Assembly (NCBI GenBank): GCA_964554125.1
Contig: CAZKNG010000005.1
Location: 1-59,392, forward strand
Reading direction: 5' to 3'
Source of the DNA: an uncultured bacterium
GTDB lineage: Bacteria; Krumholzibacteriota; Krumholzibacteriia; Krumholzibacteriales; WJIX01
DNA: 59,392 nucleotides
Part shown: piece after piece, positions 36,448 through 59,392 of the stretch
Position numbering within the stretch: position 1 is the first letter of the stretch
Layout of the letters: each line of letters opens with the position of its first letter
Program-made: the position numbers and the translations under genes
Notes under the pieces: model-generated
Seen by the model: the letters and a program-made list of their open reading frames with translations, nothing else
Database searches by the model: none
What the model was told of the DNA's origin: nothing

Positions 36448-37533
36448 TTATCGCAGTTTCAGAGTACTCATTCCAATCAACATAAAGAGAGCAGCCAGAA
36501 TCCAGAATCTCACAACTACCTGCTCTTCACTCCAACCCTTCAGTTCAAAGTGGTGGTGAAGAGGCGCCATTCTAAATATCCTCTTCCCCCTGAGCTTATA
36601 GGAAACCACCTGCAAGATAACCGAAGCAGCTTCAATAACGAAAATGCCCCCGATTATCAAAAGCAAAAACTCGCTTTTAAGCAGAACTGCAATCGTACCA
36701 AGCGCTCCGCCTAGAGCTAAAGACCCTGTATCTCCCATGAAAATCTTGGCGGGATGAGTATTAAACCATAAAAAGCCCATAGCCGCCCCAACAACTGACA
36801 TACAGTATATAGCAAGCTCTCCACTGCCCTCCTGATAAAATATATTCAGATAATCGGCGAAAACGGCGTGCCCCGAGAGATACGCGAGAATAGCAAATGA
36901 CAGAAAACAGAATGTAGTAACACCTGTCGCGAGACCGTCGAGCCCATCAGTCAGATTAACCGCGTTCGATGTACCGGTAACCACAAGCATAACAAAAGGG
37001 ATATAAAAAATATTCCAATCCAGGTATGTGTCTTTTAAGAATGGAATAGCGGTACTTGTCGCGTTCTCCTGTATAATAGGCGTGAAATATAGAAATACTC
37101 CCAGTGCCGCCCCGAAAAGCAGCTGGCCAAAAAGCTTATATCTACCGACAAGACCTTTGGCTCGTTTTTTTACGACACTCAGATAGTCATCCCAGAACCC
37201 AATCAACCCGATCCATACTGTAACTACTAAAACAAGCTGGATATAGGGATTCTTAAGATTTGCCCATAGTAAAGTGGGGATTATCGTCGCGGCTATAATT
37301 AATACTCCCCCCATCGTTGGTGTACCCTCTTTACTCGAATGCCGCTTTGGAACATCTGCCCTGATTCTCTGTCCGATCTGCATCTTCGCCAGCCATCCTA
37401 TCATTCTGGGACCGATAACAAAGCTCATAACCAAAGCTGTAATAGTCGCGTAAGCGGCTCTGAAAGTTATGTATTTGAAAACATTGAACGCGAATAAATA
37501 TTCTTTCAGCGGATAGAGAAGGTGATAAAGCAT
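36448..37533 (-). CDS. mraY: Phospho-N-acetylmuramoyl-pentapeptide transferase
   Basis: TPTMGG, DDY, NAVNLTDGLDGL, FMGDTGS, MAPLHHHFE. Confidence 0.99.
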   Translation of the reverse strand: MLYHLLYPLKEYLFAFNVFKYITFRAAYATITALVMSFVIGPRMIGWLAKMQIGQRIRADVPKRHSSKEGTPTMGGVLIIAATIIPTLLWANLKNPYIQLVLVVTVWIGLIGFWDDYLSVVKKRAKGLVGRYKLFGQLLFGAALGVFLYFTPIIQENATSTAIPFLKDTYLDWNIFYIPFVMLVVTGTSNAVNLTDGLDGLATGVTTFCFLSFAILAYLSGHAVFADYLNIFYQEGSGELAIYCMSVVGAAMGFLWFNTHPAKIFMGDTGSLALGGALGTIAVLLKSEFLLLIIGGIFVIEAASVILQVVSYKLRGKRIFRMAPLHHHFELKGWSEEQVVVRFWILAALFMLIGMSTLKLR

Positions 37534-38936
37534 CAGTCGACTCTCCTTTTTGGAGTTTCCCTGAGTATTTCAATCTCATCGATTAACTTCCACATTCCCA
37601 TATTCCTCGATCCCTTAATTAATACGGCGTCTCCCTCTTTTAACAATTCGTTCAGATAACCCGACAACTTGACTATGTCCATGAAGTGACTGATAATATC
37701 CGGCGCTTTTCTCTGAATAGATGCTTCTCTGCTAATCTCGACACTTTCTTTTCCCATAGTAATCAATCCATAAACTCCGGCTCTGCCGCAAAATCTACCA
37801 ACTTCTCTGTGTAACTCCCCGCTCTCAGGTCCCAGTTCCAGCATATCTCCCAGTACCAGCCAAGCTCTTCCCTCTACAGGCATCTCCATAAAAGCTTCAA
37901 CAGAAGACTTCAGCGATAAAGGGTTGGAATTGTACGAATCATTTACAAATACAATCCCCTCCACATCGAATATCCTCCCTCTTCTCTCAACAGCTCTGAA
38001 ATCGCCTATGGCGCGGGCAATATCTGAAATTGAAACGTCAAGACAAGCGGCAGCCGCCGCCGCGGCAACCGCATTCAACAGATGGTATCTCCCATAACTA
38101 TTTATCCGCATCGCCTGACCTCCAAGGAGAAACTTATACCCCCCTCCATATACTGTTTCAACCTCCCTCGGAGACCACTGGGCGTCATCAGAAAAACCGA
38201 AGCTGACAATATCCGCTCTGGTTTTCTCTTTCAGGAATTCAAAGAAATCGTCATCTGCCGGCAATACAGCTCTATTTTCTTCAGAAAATGAGCTTATTAA
38301 TTCCGATTTTGCCTCCGCTACACCCTTTAAAGACCTGAAGAATTCAAGATGTCCGGGGCCGATATTAGTTATGATTCCAATATCCGGCTTACCTATCTCT
38401 GCAAGGAGCTTGATCTCACCCCTGCGGCTGGCTCCCATTTCAATTACCAGAATCTCTGTTTCTTCATCCATGCTCAATATCGTTAAAGGAAGCCCTATAT
38501 GATTATTATAATTTCCCGGGGTCGCGTGGACCCTGTATTTCTCGGCGAGTATTGAAGCAAGCATCTCTTTTGTTTCTGTTTTACCGGTGCTGCCCGTAAC
38601 ACCTACCGATCGAACTCCTATCTTATCTTTATAGTCAGAAGATAATCTCTGAAGAGCCTTTACTGTATCCTCGACTTCAAATACAGGAAGTTCTAATCCC
38701 GCCCATTTATTTCTCTTCTTTTTTGAAACGAGAAGCGCTTTAGCACCTGACGTTACCGCGTCTTCAAGATAATCATGGCCGTCGGCATTTTCACCTTCAA
38801 TGGCAACGAAGATAGTTCCGCCGCAGTCATCTCTTGTATCTATAGAAACCCCTTCCACTGTTCCCGCGAGGGGGATTTCCTTTTTATAGGCCTCCCGCCC
38901 CAGTGATTCTGCTAACCATTCAAGCTCAACTTTGAT
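37533..38936 (-). CDS. murF: UDP-N-acetylmuramoyl-tripeptide--D-Ala-D-Ala ligase; probable non-canonical ATC start at 38936 (ORF track starts at GTG 38858)
   Basis: SIDTR, TGSTGKT, NYNNHIGLP, EMGA, NDSYNSNP, LGDMLELG, KGSR; the frame stays open upstream to a TAG at 38940-38942 and reads IKVELEWLAESLG after a GGAGG SD. Confidence 0.95.
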   Translation of the reverse strand: MKVELEWLAESLGREAYKKEIPLAGTVEGVSIDTRDDCGGTIFVAIEGENADGHDYLEDAVTSGAKALLVSKKKRNKWAGLELPVFEVEDTVKALQRLSSDYKDKIGVRSVGVTGSTGKTETKEMLASILAEKYRVHATPGNYNNHIGLPLTILSMDEETEILVIEMGASRRGEIKLLAEIGKPDIGIITNIGPGHLEFFRSLKGVAEAKSELISSFSEENRAVLPADDDFFEFLKEKTRADIVSFGFSDDAQWSPREVETVYGGGYKFLLGGQAMRINSYGRYHLLNAVAAAAAAACLDVSISDIARAIGDFRAVERRGRIFDVEGIVFVNDSYNSNPLSLKSSVEAFMEMPVEGRAWLVLGDMLELGPESGELHREVGRFCGRAGVYGLITMGKESVEISREASIQRKAPDIISHFMDIVKLSGYLNELLKEGDAVLIKGSRNMGMWKLIDEIEILRETPKRRVD

Positions 38937-40410
38937 AACCTACCTCCCTTGATTTTATAGCTCTCTGAGCTTCACTTACATCACTGAACTTGAATCTCTT
39001 CCGTCCGACTATCTGAATCTCTTCATGACCCTTCCCCGCTATGAGCACAAGATCATTATCACCCGCTTCCAACACTGCTTTTCTGATAGCATCTCTTCTG
39101 TCGACCACTACCTCTACTTCAGATCTGTCTTTTTCTATCCCTTCCAGAATTTCATCAATTATTCGGTGTGGATCTTCTGTGCGGGGATTATCGGTCGTAA
39201 CATAAACTGAATCGCTGAATCTTACAGCTATTGCCCCCATAATAGGCCTCTTACCTCGATCCCGGTCACCACCGCATCCGAAGACTGTAATAAGTCGCTC
39301 GGAATCAAGATTAACGCAGAATTTCAGAACATTCTCCAGCGCATCCGGGGTGTGCGCGTAGTCTACAACAACTGTCGGCCCTTTTCGCGAGGGTACAACC
39401 TGAAAACGTCCGGGAATAGATTCAACCCTTCTCAATCCTGATCTTATATCATCAGAACTGATATCTAGAGCGTAGGAAGCGGCAGCGGCTGATAAAGCGT
39501 TATATACAGAAAACTCTCCAAGGAGGTTCAACCCTATGCTCACCGTTTCATCTTCAGCTTCAAGATCAAAAGAGGTGCTCTTCAGATTCGTCTTTACATT
39601 AACAGCCTTAATATCGGCATCATCTTCTACTCCAAAGGAAACTTTCCTGCCATAAAATTCTTCACCAATTTCCCGCACAACAGGATCATCCGCGTTGTAT
39701 ACAAATTTTCCTTCTTCTTTGACCCGTTCTCGCTCCGCGAGAGATAAAACGAATTTCTTTTTTGCGTCAAGATAACTCTTAAACGTTTTGTGGTAATCGA
39801 GGTGATCCCTTGAAATATTAGTAAATATCCCGACATCAAACTCTACCCCTGTAATCCTGCCCTGAACAACACCGTGTGAACTTACTTCCATAACAACAGC
39901 CCTGCATCCTTCATCTCTAAATGCGGCTAATTTACGGTTCAGGTCCGAAGCCCCCGGGGTTGTTCTTTGCGAAGAAAACATATTCTTTCCACTTCCGTAA
40001 CCTACCGTTCCTATGATTCCGACAATTCCAAAGGATTCTTCGAGAATCGATTTCAGCAGGAAAGCTGTAGAAGTTTTGCCGTTTGTACCTGTTATTCCAA
40101 TCATAAGCATATCCCGCGCGGGATTGCCGTAATACCGGGCCGCCAGAAGCCCCTCGGCTAAAAGGGTATGACGAACAACAATCAAAGGAACTTCTGACTT
40201 GACTATTTTTTGTGTAACAACTGCCGCCGCTCCGGATTTAACGGCATCATCTACAAAATCATGCCCATCATATCTTTCCCCTTTTACTGCTATAAACAGG
40301 TCACCTTTTTTGACAGTCCTGGAATCTGTTGAAATTCCAGAGATACTAACATCGGTAAAACCTCTGTCTTCCAATATATTTACGGCTTCTATTAATTCTG
40401 ACAATAACAC
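38926..40410 (-). CDS. murE: UDP-N-acetylmuramoyl-L-alanyl-D-glutamate--meso-DAP ligase
   Basis: TGTNGKT, TTP, MEVSSH, DHLDYH, DYAHTPDA, FGCGGDRD, DNPR (meso-DAP specificity motif), AGKGHE. Confidence 0.99.
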   Translation of the reverse strand: MLLSELIEAVNILEDRGFTDVSISGISTDSRTVKKGDLFIAVKGERYDGHDFVDDAVKSGAAAVVTQKIVKSEVPLIVVRHTLLAEGLLAARYYGNPARDMLMIGITGTNGKTSTAFLLKSILEESFGIVGIIGTVGYGSGKNMFSSQRTTPGASDLNRKLAAFRDEGCRAVVMEVSSHGVVQGRITGVEFDVGIFTNISRDHLDYHKTFKSYLDAKKKFVLSLAERERVKEEGKFVYNADDPVVREIGEEFYGRKVSFGVEDDADIKAVNVKTNLKSTSFDLEAEDETVSIGLNLLGEFSVYNALSAAAASYALDISSDDIRSGLRRVESIPGRFQVVPSRKGPTVVVDYAHTPDALENVLKFCVNLDSERLITVFGCGGDRDRGKRPIMGAIAVRFSDSVYVTTDNPRTEDPHRIIDEILEGIEKDRSEVEVVVDRRDAIRKAVLEAGDNDLVLIAGKGHEEIQIVGRKRFKFSDVSEAQRAIKSREVGYQS

Positions 40411-42516
40411 TCAGCCACTCCCGTTTTCAGACCCATAGATGGAAGATTCGGATAATTTCAAACCTTTTTTACAAAACAGCCTGATATTCGATCCTACTCT
40501 CAGCAGGTTACCCGGCCCGGGGTTCTGTCTCTCAACTATACCAAAACCGGATATTGTGCTTTCAAATCCGCATTCTATTAGAATTCTTCTAGCCTTTCTG
40601 AGCGTAAGTCCTCTCAAATCCGGAACGCGTGATTTTCTTTCACCGGATTGTTTCTCTCTGAAAAGCAGAGTTATTTCTGTTCCGGTCTCTACAAGTGTTC
40701 CAGGCCCTGGAATCTGAGAGTATACTCTCCCTTTATCATCTGAACACCTCACCCCGATACCAGACCTTGAAGCCATTCTATAAGCCTCAGAAGAAGTCAT
40801 TCTATAAAAACAGGGTGTTTTTATTTTTTGATCTTCCCCTTCTCCCAAAGCGAGCATCTTTCCGGAATCTTGTGTTATATAGTCGGTAGTTAGACAAATG
40901 CTCTCTATAACTCTATTGAAAACAGGTGCCGCCGAAAGTCCTCCGTAAGTATAGGGATAATCGGGTTCGTCAAAAAGAACAAGGCAGGCAACCTGCGGGT
41001 TCTCTACGGGAGCAAATCCAATGAAACTCGATATATATTTGTTCCGCAGATATCCGTTTCTACCAGCTTTCTGAGCTGTGCCGGTTTTTCCGCCCACGGA
41101 AACCATTTCTGTTGAAGCTCTGCCTCCGGTTCCTTCCCTGACAACATCCCGGCAAAAATCCTTTATTGTATTTGATATTTTAGGGGGGAAAGCCCTTCTT
41201 ACTTTTACTCTGGGAATTTCCTCAATCCAGCCGTCTTCGCCCCTGATCTTCAGGGCAACCCGGGGAACGTACAATTCACCTCCATTGGCAAGAGCGCAAT
41301 AGGCGGACAAAATCTGAAGCGGGGTAACTCCTATTTCCTGACCAATCGCTATACTCGCTAGAGATCTCCTGGACCATTCCTGCGGCTCACGTAAAAATCC
41401 CTCGGATTCAACAGGCAGGTCCACACCGGTCTTTTCACCAAACCCCATCTTCAAAATATATCTATAGAATTCTTCCCTGCAGGATTTGGAAAGTGCTTTA
41501 ATTGTGCAAATGTTGCTTGAAAAAACAAACGATTCCCTGAAAGTCAACCAGCCGTGAGGATGATCATCACGGAAAACCCCAAACTCAAACTTTGCCTTAC
41601 CTTCTTCTCCATAAAAAGCGTCATATGGAGCCACCTTCCCGGTATTTAAAAGATAAGCATCGGTTATCAGTTTAAAGGTTGAACCCGGTTCATAATAACA
41701 GCTTGTTGAATATAATGAATGTTTGTGTTTGTCCGAAAAATATTCTGAAAGAGCCAATATATCACCGTTGGAAGGATCAGCTACGATTATAACTCCTCCT
41801 TCCGCCCCATATTTTCTTACCGCCTTCTTTAATTCAAAATTTACTATCGTCTGTATATTTGAGTCGATCGTCAAATATATATCTCTGCCGTTAACAGCCT
41901 CCCTGTGGGGAGCGTCAATAGGCCTGAACGGTCCGTTTCTGGCGTCCCGGTTTACGACAACCCACCCGTCCCTGCCGGTCAGGACATCGTTGAAAGCGCT
42001 TTCAATGCCGCCAACAGCTTTCTGTTTGTGATTGACAACACCAATAAAATTTTTATCAATGGCCTGCAGAGGCATCAATCTCTTGTGAACGGAATCAAGA
42101 CGAACTCCCGGCAGCAGATAGAGTTTAGACAACTGGCCGGCGCTTAGCCGAAGCCCTTTTTTTATAAGAATATAATCTTCGTCTTTAGTAAGAAGTCCTC
42201 TTATTTGTGAAGGCGTACTATCTGCCAGTTTTGCAATATATTCGATAACTTCTTTTTTTTCAGGTAGATCCCTTGGAGTAACACCAAGAGTGTAAGTGCA
42301 GTATGTTACGGCCAGAGGCCTGCCTCGTCTATCGAGGATTTTCCCTCTTTTAGCGGATATCTTGAGTTTGTTGTGCCATTGCTGTTTAGCGATATTCTTA
42401 TATTTTTCGTGCTGAATTATCTGAACTTTTACAATTCTAAATACAATAACGGCCACTACCGCACTCAGAAATACAACAATAAACCTCAAACGGCCTCTTG
42501 ATAGTTTACGGATCAT
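40411..42516 (-). CDS. ftsI: Class B penicillin-binding protein (FtsI-like) with two C-terminal PASTA domains
   Basis: RGKILDR, GGIE, EPGSTFK (SxxK), SSN (SxN), KTGTAQ; C-terminal VYSQIPGPG and VPDLRGL...QNPGPG PASTA repeats. Confidence 0.95.
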   Translation of the reverse strand: MIRKLSRGRLRFIVVFLSAVVAVIVFRIVKVQIIQHEKYKNIAKQQWHNKLKISAKRGKILDRRGRPLAVTYCTYTLGVTPRDLPEKKEVIEYIAKLADSTPSQIRGLLTKDEDYILIKKGLRLSAGQLSKLYLLPGVRLDSVHKRLMPLQAIDKNFIGVVNHKQKAVGGIESAFNDVLTGRDGWVVVNRDARNGPFRPIDAPHREAVNGRDIYLTIDSNIQTIVNFELKKAVRKYGAEGGVIIVADPSNGDILALSEYFSDKHKHSLYSTSCYYEPGSTFKLITDAYLLNTGKVAPYDAFYGEEGKAKFEFGVFRDDHPHGWLTFRESFVFSSNICTIKALSKSCREEFYRYILKMGFGEKTGVDLPVESEGFLREPQEWSRRSLASIAIGQEIGVTPLQILSAYCALANGGELYVPRVALKIRGEDGWIEEIPRVKVRRAFPPKISNTIKDFCRDVVREGTGGRASTEMVSVGGKTGTAQKAGRNGYLRNKYISSFIGFAPVENPQVACLVLFDEPDYPYTYGGLSAAPVFNRVIESICLTTDYITQDSGKMLALGEGEDQKIKTPCFYRMTSSEAYRMASRSGIGVRCSDDKGRVYSQIPGPGTLVETGTEITLLFREKQSGERKSRVPDLRGLTLRKARRILIECGFESTISGFGIVERQNPGPGNLLRVGSNIRLFCKKGLKLSESSIYGSENGSG

Positions 42517-56833: not shown

Positions 56834-57559
56834 TTATTTAAACTTTCTCAGATGCCTAATACTCATAAACCTTAAACGCCATACCAGAAAAACAGCTTCC
56901 CAAACAATCTTTTTCGACATTTTAGAGACGCCAACTCTTCTATCTGTGAAAACTACAGGGATCTCTTTGATCCGGAAACCCTTTTTCCAGCACAGGTAAT
57001 TCATCTCGATCTGAAATGAGTACCCATCACTGTGGACCCTTTCGAGGGGCATTTCCTCCAGGACTTCGCGCCTGAAACATTTAAAACCCCCCGTTGAATC
57101 TGTGAGCGGAAGCCCCGTAATAATTCTTGTATATAAATTCGCCCCATAACTCAGGATCAATCGGCGCAGGGGCCAGTTGACAACTGTTATCCCCTTCAGA
57201 TATCGGGATCCAACCACCAGATCGTTATTTCGGATTGCGTCGAGAAACCGGAGGATATCCTCCGGGTTATGAGAAAAATCAGCGTCCATCTCAAAAATAT
57301 ATTTTGCGGGAGTGTTGGCTAAAGCCCATTTGAACCCGGCTATGTAAGCTGACCCCAAACCCATTTTACCCTGTCTGTGAATGACATTAACTCTTTCTTC
57401 TCCCTCTGCTATTGTTTCGGCAATCTCGCCGGTTCCATCGGGAGAGTTGTCATCAACAATCAATACTCCGAGATTGTCCGAAACTCCCAGAACAGCATTT
57501 ATTATCTCCCGAACATTCTCCTCTTCATTATACGTGGGAATTACAACAAGAGCATCCAA
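56834..57559 (-). CDS. Polyprenol monophosphomannose synthase (DPM1-like GT2)
   Basis: VIPTYNE, VDDNSPDGTG, GLGSAYIAGF, EMDADFSH, GSRY, D.TGGFKCFRR, GYSFQIE, F.DR..G.SKM. Confidence 0.93.
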   Translation of the reverse strand: MDALVVIPTYNEEENVREIINAVLGVSDNLGVLIVDDNSPDGTGEIAETIAEGEERVNVIHRQGKMGLGSAYIAGFKWALANTPAKYIFEMDADFSHNPEDILRFLDAIRNNDLVVGSRYLKGITVVNWPLRRLILSYGANLYTRIITGLPLTDSTGGFKCFRREVLEEMPLERVHSDGYSFQIEMNYLCWKKGFRIKEIPVVFTDRRVGVSKMSKKIVWEAVFLVWRLRFMSIRHLRKFK

Positions 57560-57561
57560 TT

Positions 57562-59392
57562 TTAACCGACCTTTCTTTTGAATACTAAAAACCCGGCTAT
57601 AGACAAAAACAGTGATAATATAAAGCTTATAATCGAGATTGTTAACGAAGCTTTTATTACTCTGGGTTTATAATCAAATTCGATCTTATGATCACCCTCT
57701 TTTAACTGTAACGCCCGCAGACAGTAATCAGCCCTTAGAATCTCTTTTTCTTCACCGTCAACTTCAACTCTCCAGTCAGGATAATATACCTCGCTTAAAA
57801 CCATTATACATGAATTTTCAACGTGGGCATCTATTTTTATCGAATTCAATCCGTAACTTTTTATCTCAGCATGGCTTCCCTGTGCTGATCCATTCTCGAG
57901 TGGTATATCTTTTTCCAGAAGCACCTGCTTAGCCGGATTAAATCCACTTGACGCTATAAAATCAAGCATCTTTTCCGACTCTAAGACTTTTATCCTGTCA
58001 ACGAAGAATATTCGGGGAAGAGCCCCCGTGTTCTCGTAGATACATTTTGAGCCTTGCTTCCACACAAGCGGGAAAGTTGAGTTTTCATTAAAGAGAGGAT
58101 TATAAGAAAATATATACTTTACATTAAGCATATTGAGAATCTGCAGAGGAACCGTCCTGCTGTTGAATAATTCAAACATTTTATCCATAACATCCTGATA
58201 TATCTGGAGTTTTGCCGCATGATATCCGCCGGTAGAAAATAATCCCGATATCATATACTTATTCTCGCTGAAAGGAAAAACGCTGTGAGACCATCTGCCT
58301 AACCCGGCAGCCGGAGCCGGAAATATTCTGTAGAATGACTCGTCTTTCTTTAAAAATCTTATCGCTTCGTCGGGTTCTTTATATTTTTCTCTTTCTTCAC
58401 CTGATTCCACAATCCTCATATCTTCATACCCCCATGTTTTTTCAGGATGAATTATAGAATCGCTCAGAAGAAAAAGATCTAAGAAGAGGACAGCTGCAAG
58501 GGCTGATATTAAATATCCTTTTCTAATTTTCTTTATAGAAGCAAACAGCAGAATAGCGGCAACTGCTGTAAGAAAGAAAACTCTTGTTATCAGGTCCTTA
58601 GTGAATCCTTCAGCAGCTTTGTCGGGAAAACGAACTTTATCCGCAACTGAACTGTTTAATATTCTCTCCTGTATCGGGCTGCTGGCTACAAGAACAATAG
58701 AAAGAACTGCAGCACAGGTGATAATAGAATATCTGAAAATCTTTCTGCTTCTTGGACTGAACAAAACACCTTCACTATACAGGTTGATGACCTTTTGAAT
58801 ACCAAGCCCCATGAGAACGACAACCATAAGCTGTTGAACGATAAGCACCATTACCGGAACCCTGAACTTGTTGAAATACGGAAAGTATTTAAACATGAAT
58901 CCAAAAAGAGGGAAGAATTTTCCGAAACTCAATAAAGTTGACAACAACGCTGTAACGGCGAGAAACCACTTCCATCTATTTTTTATAAGAAATAGCGCCG
59001 CTCCGGAAAAAAGAGCGGTTACAATTCCCAGATAATTGGGATAATCTGTAAACGGCATGTATCCCCAGTAGGTTATCTTTCCGAACCCGAAAGCCCATGG
59101 AAACACAAAGGTCAGCATTTCCTTCGGATGCAAGCTCCAGCTCGTGGCATATCCGTATTCCAGTCCTCCCCCCGAGCCTCCGCCTCTGATAGAAAACTGA
59201 GCGTAATGTTTCAGGGGCATAATGAGGACAGAAGCTATACCGGCAGCAATGACAAAGGAGAGGAATATCAGGATCGTGTTAACGGTTAAATCCTTCTTCT
59301 TACCCTTCCGGAACAAATATACAGTCTCGAAGATAAAAAGAAGCCCGACGACAAGATAGGTATAGTAAGAAATCTGAACATGACCGCGAAGC
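57562..59392 (-). CDS. YfhO-family polytopic membrane protein (GT-C-like); partial, 5' end lies beyond the window
   Basis: Frame is open from the window end (LRGHVQISYY...) through YATSWSLHP, PYFNKFRVP, GGYHAAKL, LSEVYYPDW and RADYCLRA. Confidence 0.88.
   Translation of the reverse strand, partial: LRGHVQISYYTYLVVGLLFIFETVYLFRKGKKKDLTVNTILIFLSFVIAAGIASVLIMPLKHYAQFSIRGGGSGGGLEYGYATSWSLHPKEMLTFVFPWAFGFGKITYWGYMPFTDYPNYLGIVTALFSGAALFLIKNRWKWFLAVTALLSTLLSFGKFFPLFGFMFKYFPYFNKFRVPVMVLIVQQLMVVVLMGLGIQKVINLYSEGVLFSPRSRKIFRYSIITCAAVLSIVLVASSPIQERILNSSVADKVRFPDKAAEGFTKDLITRVFFLTAVAAILLFASIKKIRKGYLISALAAVLFLDLFLLSDSIIHPEKTWGYEDMRIVESGEEREKYKEPDEAIRFLKKDESFYRIFPAPAAGLGRWSHSVFPFSENKYMISGLFSTGGYHAAKLQIYQDVMDKMFELFNSRTVPLQILNMLNVKYIFSYNPLFNENSTFPLVWKQGSKCIYENTGALPRIFFVDRIKVLESEKMLDFIASSGFNPAKQVLLEKDIPLENGSAQGSHAEIKSYGLNSIKIDAHVENSCIMVLSEVYYPDWRVEVDGEEKEILRADYCLRALQLKEGDHKIEFDYKPRVIKASLTISIISFILSLFLSIAGFLVFKRKVG

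Follow-up and report, generated by a model that had tools for sequence, protein, structure and literature searches.

The window, a 59,392-nt stretch of DNA from an uncultured bacterium of the Krumholzibacteriota, carries the peptidoglycan genes murE and murF on its minus strand (Table 1). Read directly on that strand, the 3' end of murE gives ...AIKSREVGYQS-TGA. The last six MurE residues, E-V-G-Y-Q-S, are encoded by the ribosome-binding site and proposed start codon of murF. At its far end, the stop codon of murF overlaps the ATG of mraY (37533) by 1 nt.

Table 1. Features of the murE/murF junction, in window coordinates
Feature	Position	Strand	Remarks
murE (UDP-MurNAc-L-Ala-D-Glu:meso-DAP ligase)	38926..40410	-	494 aa; GTG start at 40410, TGA stop at 38928-38926; MurE-named homologues and three Mur ligase Pfam domains
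Shine-Dalgarno (SD) sequence GGGAGGT (core GGAGGT 38947-38942)	38942..38948	-	within murE, 5 nt 5' of ATC
TAG stop in the murF frame	38940..38942	-	two codons ahead of ATC; shuts off upstream starts
ATC, proposed murF initiation codon	38934..38936	-	would be read as fMet; straddles murE codons TAT-CAA
murE/murF overlap, ATCAAAGTTGA	38926..38936	-	11 nt; register common to all ATC, GTG and ATG relatives
N-terminal 26 codons of murF, M/I-KVELEWLAESLGREAYKKEIPLAGT	38859..38936	-	omitted by gene callers
GTG, first canonical in-frame start	38856..38858	-	start of the 441-aa database protein P0002; no SD; not conserved
murF, re-annotated	37533..38936	-	467 codons plus stop at 37535-37533

From 38942 onward, the murF frame runs TAG, GTT, ATC (38936-34), AAA, GTT, GAG, CTT, GAA, TGG, and so on. 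Its translation beyond the TAG, V-I-K-V-E-L-E-W-L-A-E-S-L-G...GTVEGVSIDTR, is as the initial annotation gave it, and on the minus strand the first in-frame ATG, GTG or TTG is indeed GTG 38858-56, 27 codons past the TAG. The TAG is identical in strain variants of the window, and the related lineage L132 has the same one. Two further stops (TAA, TAA) lie upstream. Because the TAG and then the two TAA codons close the frame, an upstream murF start is impossible; stop-codon read-through into murF was rejected, with three stops upstream. With the TAG two codons ahead of the ATC and no canonical start until 26 codons past it, the conserved N-terminus of the protein cannot come from a canonical start.

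The initial annotation placed the start at ATC, behind an SD sequence ending 6 nt before it. That SD, AAGGGAGGT (38950-38942, minus strand), does lie inside the end of murE; the spacer, however, is 5 nt (AGGTT) from GGAGGT, and becomes 6 nt only when counted from the GGAGG core. Among the long open reading frames of the window, only murF has a 5' stretch that lacks starts yet contains an ATH codon behind an SD. The motif GGAGG-N6-ATC was observed once against 2.6 expected in shuffles and is not significant by itself; what makes it significant is where it lies and that relatives conserve it. No significant RNA structure was found around the murF start (z = -1.35), and no tRNA genes were found in the window.

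The identity of the product is clear. PF01225, PF08245 and PF02875 (Mur_ligase, Mur_ligase_M and Mur_ligase_C) all score above cut-offs, and E. coli MurF 1GG4 is matched with an E value of 2e-60 over residues 27-453. In related junctions, the N-terminus follows the motif I-[KR]-[VIA]-[ED]-L-x-W-[LIV]-A, and third-position variation in the murF frame sets in immediately after the aligned ATC; upstream of it, the translation of that frame is unconserved, with stops in five lineages. An AF2 model of MurF has a mean pLDDT of 91; over residues 1-10 the value is 89, and the N-terminus is predicted to contain a strand and a helix at 5-12. For the N-terminal 26 residues, conservation is of the coding type and the predicted fold is confident. 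A genome-contig scan, in which generic MurF motifs were picked, yielded only distant MurF loci (31-40% identity), which served purely as a control. In all of about 120 such loci, the DTR motif is preceded by a canonical start 20 or more codons away, which makes an N-terminal segment this long the norm.

These observations bear on the start preferred by gene callers, GTG 38858 (P0002), with which MurF would have 441 residues and the 26 codons ahead of it would be a relic that is not translated. A truncated MurF is not impossible in principle, since some solved MurF structures have a shorter N-terminus, among them Thermotoga 3ZL8, whose residue 14 aligns to residue 36 here. However, the 26 codons in question are conserved as protein, with third-position variation, and their product is predicted to fold. 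Nothing resembling an SD precedes the GTG, and its codon is not a start in relatives, being GTC in L128 and L132 and ATC in L082. In L128 and L137, moreover, no canonical start precedes the DTR motif except a TTG or CTG that touches the SD. We consider initiation at GTG 38858 quite unlikely.

Initiation at ATC was next judged by comparison with relatives. We compared 15 distinct related murE-murF junctions (50-73% protein identity, GC 0.44-0.69); a metagenome scan supplied five useful loci. In 12 of the 15 (L128, L132, L137, L133, L082, L083/L116, L084, L085, L135, L138/139, L141 and L142), the junction reads GGAGG[T/C]-N5-ATC-...-T(G/A)(A/G) in the same register. The SD, the 5-nt spacer and the ATC are invariant at every ATC junction, the window included (13/13), and (G)GG AGG is unchanged in 11 aligned junctions; GGAGG[T/C]-N5 persists over a GC range of 0.42-0.69. 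Two lineages carry a canonical start at exactly the ATC codon, GTG in L134 and ATG in L140, and L129 has an ATG one codon downstream of that position; the SD of L140 is visibly weaker. The recurrence of SD-N5-ATC in 12 other lineages, together with the GTG and ATG swaps, strongly supports the start at ATC 38936-34 that was first proposed from the window.

The surroundings of the ATC differ among these lineages. Five of them (the window, L132, L137, L135 and L142) have a closed upstream frame devoid of canonical starts. In L128 and L133, the sole canonical start between the upstream stop and the ATC is a TTG abutting the SD. In GC-rich relatives, the frame is open upstream to an ATG, 16 codons away in L082-L084 and 6 in L138, and these lineages could use that ATG instead of the ATC.

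The same alignment distinguishes the ATC from other non-canonical codons nearby, namely GTT 38939-37, CTG 38903-01 and ATC 38876-74. The N-terminus of E. coli MurF, M-I-S-V-T-L, lines up with V-I-K-V-E-L and would place the methionine at GTT 38939-37, and CTG is a known weak start. Against this, the codon before the ATC varies across relatives (GTT, GTT, GAC, GTC, GTA, AAC, GAC, GCG, GAC, ATC) and is never a start, and the position of CTG 38903 is occupied by CTT, ATA, ATC or CTC with no SD. Only ATC 38936-34 is both invariant and correctly spaced from the SD, and a start at one of the other three codons is very unlikely. Orthologues place the start neither at GTG 38858 nor at CTG 38903, the competitors named by the initial annotation, where GTC, ATC, CTT and ATA, among others, are found instead.

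The bases of the ATC are also genuine. ATC is one base from ATG and the window derives from a metagenome assembly, and the initial annotation had accordingly raised the possibilities of a sequencing error and of a recent single-base change from ATG. The same junction, however, recurs without change in L001, an independent JGI contig, and in Logan contigs from four runs of different studies and habitats (soil, sediment and salt-lake metagenomes). Two of these runs represent divergent strain variants, with 8 and 17 differences over the 501 nt compared, none of which falls between 38911 and 38974. These independent samples, which show ATC and not ATG, refute a sequencing error as far as contigs can tell, and retention of the ATC in 12 other lineages, down to ~50% MurF identity, refutes a recent change. 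We therefore assign a negligible probability to an error of sequencing or assembly and to the recent inactivation of an ATG by mutation. Given that a dozen distant relatives share the ATC together with its ribosome-binding site, the ATC appears to be an old, selected feature.

Since the site lies within murE, constraints on MurE must also be weighed. The T of the ATC is the synonymous third position of a murE NAT codon. GC-rich genomes prefer NAC, yet this codon keeps its T, which is present in 10 of 10 junctions tested; multiplying the expected T fractions gives 6e-5, a figure to be read with the caveat that the lineages are not phylogenetically independent. The C is the first base of the penultimate murE codon (Q/R/H/P), and the A is the second base of the neighboring codon. 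Part of the conservation of the ATC could therefore stem from MurE, or from a requirement for isoleucine, although L134 and L140 tolerate E at the penultimate codon. More broadly, MurE tails of the form [HYDN]-[QHRP]-x occur in ~80 of 120 homologues, are preceded by E-V in 70 of these, and are scattered across the whole MurE tree. Because [HYDN] can be encoded by NAT or NAC, such tails show no more than compatibility with A(T/C)C. We read this pattern as a probable footprint of an SD followed by A(T/C)C, which supports the ATC start but does not prove it.

A different use of the junction would be to join the two proteins. Natural MurE-MurF fusions exist: that of Bordetella pertussis (PDB 8F5D; PMC10214165) consists of these two enzymes joined end to end in this order, MurF here matches the second half of the 8f5d_A chain, and MurE and MurF have been reported to form a complex (PMC10214165). 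A fusion could be made here if ribosomes shifted frame by +1 (or -2), in a programmed manner, between TAG 38942-40 and TGA 38928-26. As at the +1 frameshift site of prfB, an SD-like element lies upstream of an in-frame stop and the downstream frame is +1, here relative to murE. However, the shift would have to fall within the four codons GGT TAT CAA AGT, none of which re-pairs in the +1 frame. The corresponding codons differ among relatives (GGA CAT CAG AAT; GGA CAT CAG GGT; TGC GAT CAG GGC) and thus offer no conserved slippery site. The stop follows the SD at 13 nt, versus 3 nt in prfB, and sister lineages have canonical starts: replacement of the ATC by GTG in L134 and by ATG in L140 fits initiation, not frameshifting. 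Unlike the single continuous frame of the Bordetella protein, murE and murF occupy different frames. Given these frames, a stop in each and no frameshift site, two separate proteins are expected, and we regard a frameshifted fusion as highly improbable.

We thus consider it very likely that initiation of murF is directed to AUC by the SD, probably in coupling with termination on murE, and that the output of MurF would be low. The use of AUC, the coupling to murE, the low output and any dependence on IF3 are what we infer from the sequence. In the proposed scheme, GGAGGU within the last murE codons would set the P site of the 30S subunit on AUC, 5 nt downstream. Initiator tRNA would pair there with one mismatch, giving a 467-residue MurF that starts with methionine and includes the conserved N-terminal strand-helix. 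In E. coli, AUC initiates with an N-terminal methionine at 1-2% of the AUG level (Hecht et al., 10.1101/063800), so that synthesis of MurF would be kept well below, and tied to, that of MurE. By analogy with infC, MurF output could also be IF3-sensitive. The initial annotation had suggested deliberate down-tuning of MurF. Selection on the ATC is indeed indicated, since a single-base change would give ATG, which is tolerated elsewhere, and yet the ATC has persisted; the down-tuning itself we only infer.

Coupling to murE is likely because the murF start lies inside murE, 8 nt before its stop. The TGA is 8-10 nt 3' of the A of the ATC, a position that allows termination-coupled initiation, and ribosomes ending murE would thus terminate atop the murF initiation site. 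These ribosomes would probably feed murF either by termination-reinitiation or by holding the site unfolded. The 11-nt overlap is just beyond the range of -8 to +10 nt that Huber et al. (PMC10666635) regard as predictive of termination-reinitiation; its register is kept in all relatives.

We propose tentatively, and with slightly more doubt than confidence, that purifying selection has maintained the AUC start across a large part of the Krumholzibacteriota as an attenuator through which MurF output would depend on murE translation and perhaps on the activity of IF3. If so, it would join infC as a second system with deep conservation of a near-cognate start, the first to use AUC, and the ribosome-binding site of murF, rather than MurE function, would dictate the last six MurE residues. 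Confirmed bacterial genes with AUH starts are very few, and they are the main natural handles on start-codon proofreading by IF3. An AUC start shared across the clade, on an essential peptidoglycan gene, would provide a natural, evolutionarily replicated test case, in which the site is otherwise the same in ATC, GTG and ATG lineages. Our literature search for an ATC start in murF or the dcw cluster found no report, and the sole bacterial ATC-start example it returned was a Sinorhizobium uORF.

There would also be consequences for annotation. In the Krumholzibacteriota, murF would be systematically mis-annotated, its probable ATC start being missed by public annotations. Database MurF proteins of this phylum are 424 to 499 aa long; their starts are assigned to a TTG inside the SD, to internal GTG or ATG codons, or to upstream ATGs that look out of frame. 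Gene callers limited to ATG, GTG and TTG would thus cut real proteins short. The junction would also illustrate how the C-terminus of an upstream protein can be fixed by an initiation site that overlaps its gene.

Finally, it is useful to set the murE-murF junction beside better-known systems. Like known termination-reinitiation pairs (PMC10666635), murE and murF are unidirectional and encode consecutive enzymes of one pathway, with the SD in the upstream gene and the second start just upstream of the first stop. Unlike those pairs, they overlap by 11 nt instead of the common 4 or 1 nt, and the restart codon is non-canonical. Another comparison is with infC, which encodes IF3, and pcnB; Hecht et al. 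(10.1101/063800) count no other confirmed non-canonical starts in E. coli. Both of these start at AUU and murF here probably at AUC, and all three would have an SD-preceded near-cognate AUH start that is retained though one base from AUG; initiation of murF is likewise expected, by analogy, to be inefficient and IF3-sensitive. In contrast to infC and pcnB, murF encodes a peptidoglycan ligase rather than a translation or RNA factor, its start lies within the upstream gene, 8 nt before the stop of that gene, and no autoregulatory logic is evident for murF. With its closed frame, its SD spacing and an ATC that is swapped only for canonical starts at the same position, the putative murF start adds a conserved case to the infC-type class of near-cognate starts.

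Initiation of murF at ATC 38936-34, as first proposed in the initial annotation, is supported by a murE-murF arrangement that is conserved in related junctions. The gene belongs to part of a dcw cluster on the minus strand of the window, comprising genes for a PASTA-type PBP, murE, murF, mraY, and murD. The 3′ end of murE reads ...AAA TCA AGG GAG GTA GGT TAT CAA AGT TGA, and in the +1 frame these bases read TAG (38942-40) GTT ATC (38936-34) AAA GTT GAG CTT GAA TGG. Because two additional stops lie in the murF frame upstream of the TAG, there is no possible murF start farther upstream. The earliest in-frame ATG, GTG, or TTG is GTG 38858, 26 codons past the ATC. The minus-strand layout described initially holds, except that the spacer between GGAGGT and ATC is 5 nt and not 6 nt. 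The dcw genes are tightly packed head to tail, with zero gap between the PBP stop (40411) and the murE GTG (40410) and a 1-nt overlap between the murF stop and the mraY ATG (37533). Several genes of the cluster have GTG or TTG starts (murE GTG, murD TTG, ftsW TTG).

Features of the murE-murF region in the window
Feature	Position	Strand	Detail
PASTA-type PBP gene	42516..40411	minus	
murE	40410..38926	minus	GTG start 40410, stop TGA 38928-26
GGAGGT Shine-Dalgarno (SD)	38947-42	minus	5-nt spacer, then ATC
murF frame	ATC 38936 to stop 37535-33	minus	467 open codons
mraY	37533..36448	minus	ATG start 37533

The ATC is not a single-assembly error, an option that had been raised with the proposal. An independent JGI contig, identical to the window at the junction, also carries the gene for the database MurF protein (P0002, 441 aa, with the GTG as its start), and the site is covered by Logan contigs of four public metagenome runs from different studies (two from soil and one each from sediment and a salt lake). 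Strain variants in two of these runs show 8 and 17 differences across 501 nt and zero within 38911-38974, leaving SD, TAG, and ATC unchanged, although this check of the bases uses contigs, which may mask rare variants.

We compared 16 junctions, the window's and 15 distinct ones from relatives (L numbers). In 13 lineages with GC contents of 0.42-0.69 (the window, L128, L132, L137, L133, L082, L083/L116, L084, L085, L135, L138/L139, L141, and L142), GGAGG[T/C] is followed by 5 nt, ATC, and two codons, with the murE stop overlapping as GxTGA or ATTAG. L134 has GTG at exactly the ATC codon with the same SD spacing, L140 has ATG at exactly that codon, and L129 has ATG one codon 3′ of it with its own SD. 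The ATC and GTG lineages retain a perfect GGAGG at 5-6 nt; the ATG lineage L140 (1985-2003) has a weaker SD farther away (AGAGGA, 8 nt), a single case that may reflect compensation between codon and SD strength. No canonical start lies between the upstream in-frame stop and the ATC in the window, L132, L137, L135, or L142, and the sole upstream candidate in L128 and L133 is a TTG abutting or overlapping the SD. In the GC-rich L082-L084, the murF frame is open upstream to an ATG 16 codons before the ATC, which exists because murE's conserved F-x-D-A (GAT+G) creates it; it is missing in L085 (GAC) and L135. Across an 11-junction alignment, the SD (G)GG AGG is invariant and the start position is ATC in 10 and GTG in one, while codons -1 and -2 vary. 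As for the other starts weighed initially, neither GTG 38858 nor CTG 38903 is conserved among relatives, nor is GTT 38939; initiation at GTG 38858, which lacks an SD, would leave the D of the DTR motif preceded by 6 residues.

Several signs indicate that this conservation reflects initiation. First, the T of ATC is the synonymous third base of a murE His, Tyr, Asp, or Asn codon, and it is T in 10/10 tested. GC-rich genomes favor NAC, with NAT fractions of 0.20-0.45; the product of the expected T fractions is 6e-5, for lineages that are not independent. Second, a C-to-G change would yield ATG at the sole cost of a penultimate Q-to-E change in MurE, which is tolerated, since L134 and L140 carry exactly this E; nevertheless, most lineages lack it. 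Among the Ile codons of murE and murF in the window, moreover, ATC is the least used (11/68). Third, variation 3′ of the ATC concentrates at murF-frame third codon positions in the 11-junction alignment (for example, with per-position entropies of 0.44/0.44/1.57 for codon +3 and 0/0.44/1.68 for codon +8), and 5′ of it the murF-frame translation is unconserved, with stops in five lineages. Finally, GTG or ATG takes the place of ATC at exactly that codon in L134 and L140, as initiation predicts and a +1 frameshift yielding a MurE-MurF fusion does not. Such a frameshift is worth considering given that natural fusions are known (8F5D; PMC10214165), but the four candidate shift codons are non-slippery and variable among relatives, and the SD lies 13 nt from the stop.

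The MurE C-terminus reports the junction type, because SD and ATC in the murE frame encode its tail, E-V-x-[HYDN]-[QHRP]-x-stop. The [HYDN]-[QHRP] tail occurs in 80 of the 120 best-matching MurE homologues, 70 of them with E-V too; this tail indicates A(T/C)C only, and all 13 DNA-verified cases are ATC. Four of the 120 have the ATG-type [HYDN]-[ED], and the GTG type is a small clade. In a midpoint-rooted MurE tree computed without the tail, ATC-type tails fall on both sides of the root and the ATG and GTG types group in a five-member nested clade, a pattern that suggests an old ATC in this group with a few later replacements. The last six MurE residues, E-V-x-[HYDN]-Q-x (38926-38948, minus), are conserved clade-wide, apparently only because the murF start codon and its ribosome-binding site specify them. 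The initiation site of a downstream gene would impose sequence on the C-terminus of the upstream protein.

The N-terminal segment opened by the ATC is part of MurF, in which Pfam recognizes three Mur ligase domains. Residue 23 of E. coli MurF (1GG4) aligns to residue 27 of a query beginning at GTT, one codon before ATC, so the N-terminal lengths fit a start at or next to the ATC. An AlphaFold2 model from 28 homologues has a mean pLDDT of 91, and residues 1-10 (pLDDT 89) are modelled as a short strand that leads into helix 5-12. Of 135 MurF loci, just two, those of the window species (as L001, the JGI contig) and L137, have no canonical start 20 or more codons ahead of the DTR motif; such a start is present in every one of about 120 distant MurF genes.

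Public annotations miss this ATC start, which a wide Krumholzibacteriota clade has conserved. The nearest proteins are annotated MurF of Krumholzibacteria/Krumholzibacteriota MAGs (50-73% identity), with chaotic starts and lengths of 424 to 499 aa: the annotated start is an internal M or V right before the DTR motif in some and the V of W-V-A in others, and some have an Arg-rich upstream extension. Wherever annotation extends far enough, x-I-[KR]-[VIA]-[ED]-L-x-W-[LIV]-A is present, and a few homologues start M-K-A-D-F-A-W, with M exactly at the window's I. In L128:2001-2003 (JAGHBT010000149.1) and L133:2001-2003 (CP070727.1), the NCBI start is the TTG abutting or overlapping the GGAGG SD (GGAGGTTG), which leaves no space for SD spacing; it is almost certainly a forced choice, because the gene caller disallows ATC. 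Other relatives' murF annotations have 7 to 44 residues cut off or extend into murE. GC-rich relatives contain spurious ORFs of 300-530 codons in alternative frames across murE and murF (L084:1433-1435, L085:1231-1233, L134:1876-1878, and L135:2056-2058), and because of these ORFs gene callers can push murF far upstream.

Judged from this one window, the ATC start is gene-specific and does not reflect a generally relaxed choice of start codon, since no long ORF in the 59 kb other than murF has a start-less leader that contains an SD-preceded ATH codon. Stop-to-stop ORFs 56834-57667 and 57562-59391 (minus), the latter reaching the window edge, have start-less 5′ stretches of 36 and 25 codons, in which no SD-preceded ATH codon was found.

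The best-supported reading of murF is SD-directed initiation at AUC, where the initiator tRNA would start the protein. Coupling to murE termination, by termination-reinitiation or by unfolding of the site, is plausible: with the murE UGA 8-10 nt 3′ of the AUC, a ribosome terminating on murE would cover the murF site. The 11-nt overlap falls slightly beyond the interval of -8 to +10 that Huber et al. (PMC10666635) take as predictive of termination-reinitiation, and no significant local RNA structure was found around the murF start. In E. coli reporters, AUC yields 1-2% of AUG and produces N-terminal Met (Hecht et al., 10.1101/063800). By analogy with infC, MurF output may be low, murE-linked, and possibly IF3-sensitive. 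The predicted murF start adds a new member to the near-cognate start codons already known in bacteria, and its interest lies in the depth of its conservation, in an essential gene, and in a natural ATC/GTG/ATG series.
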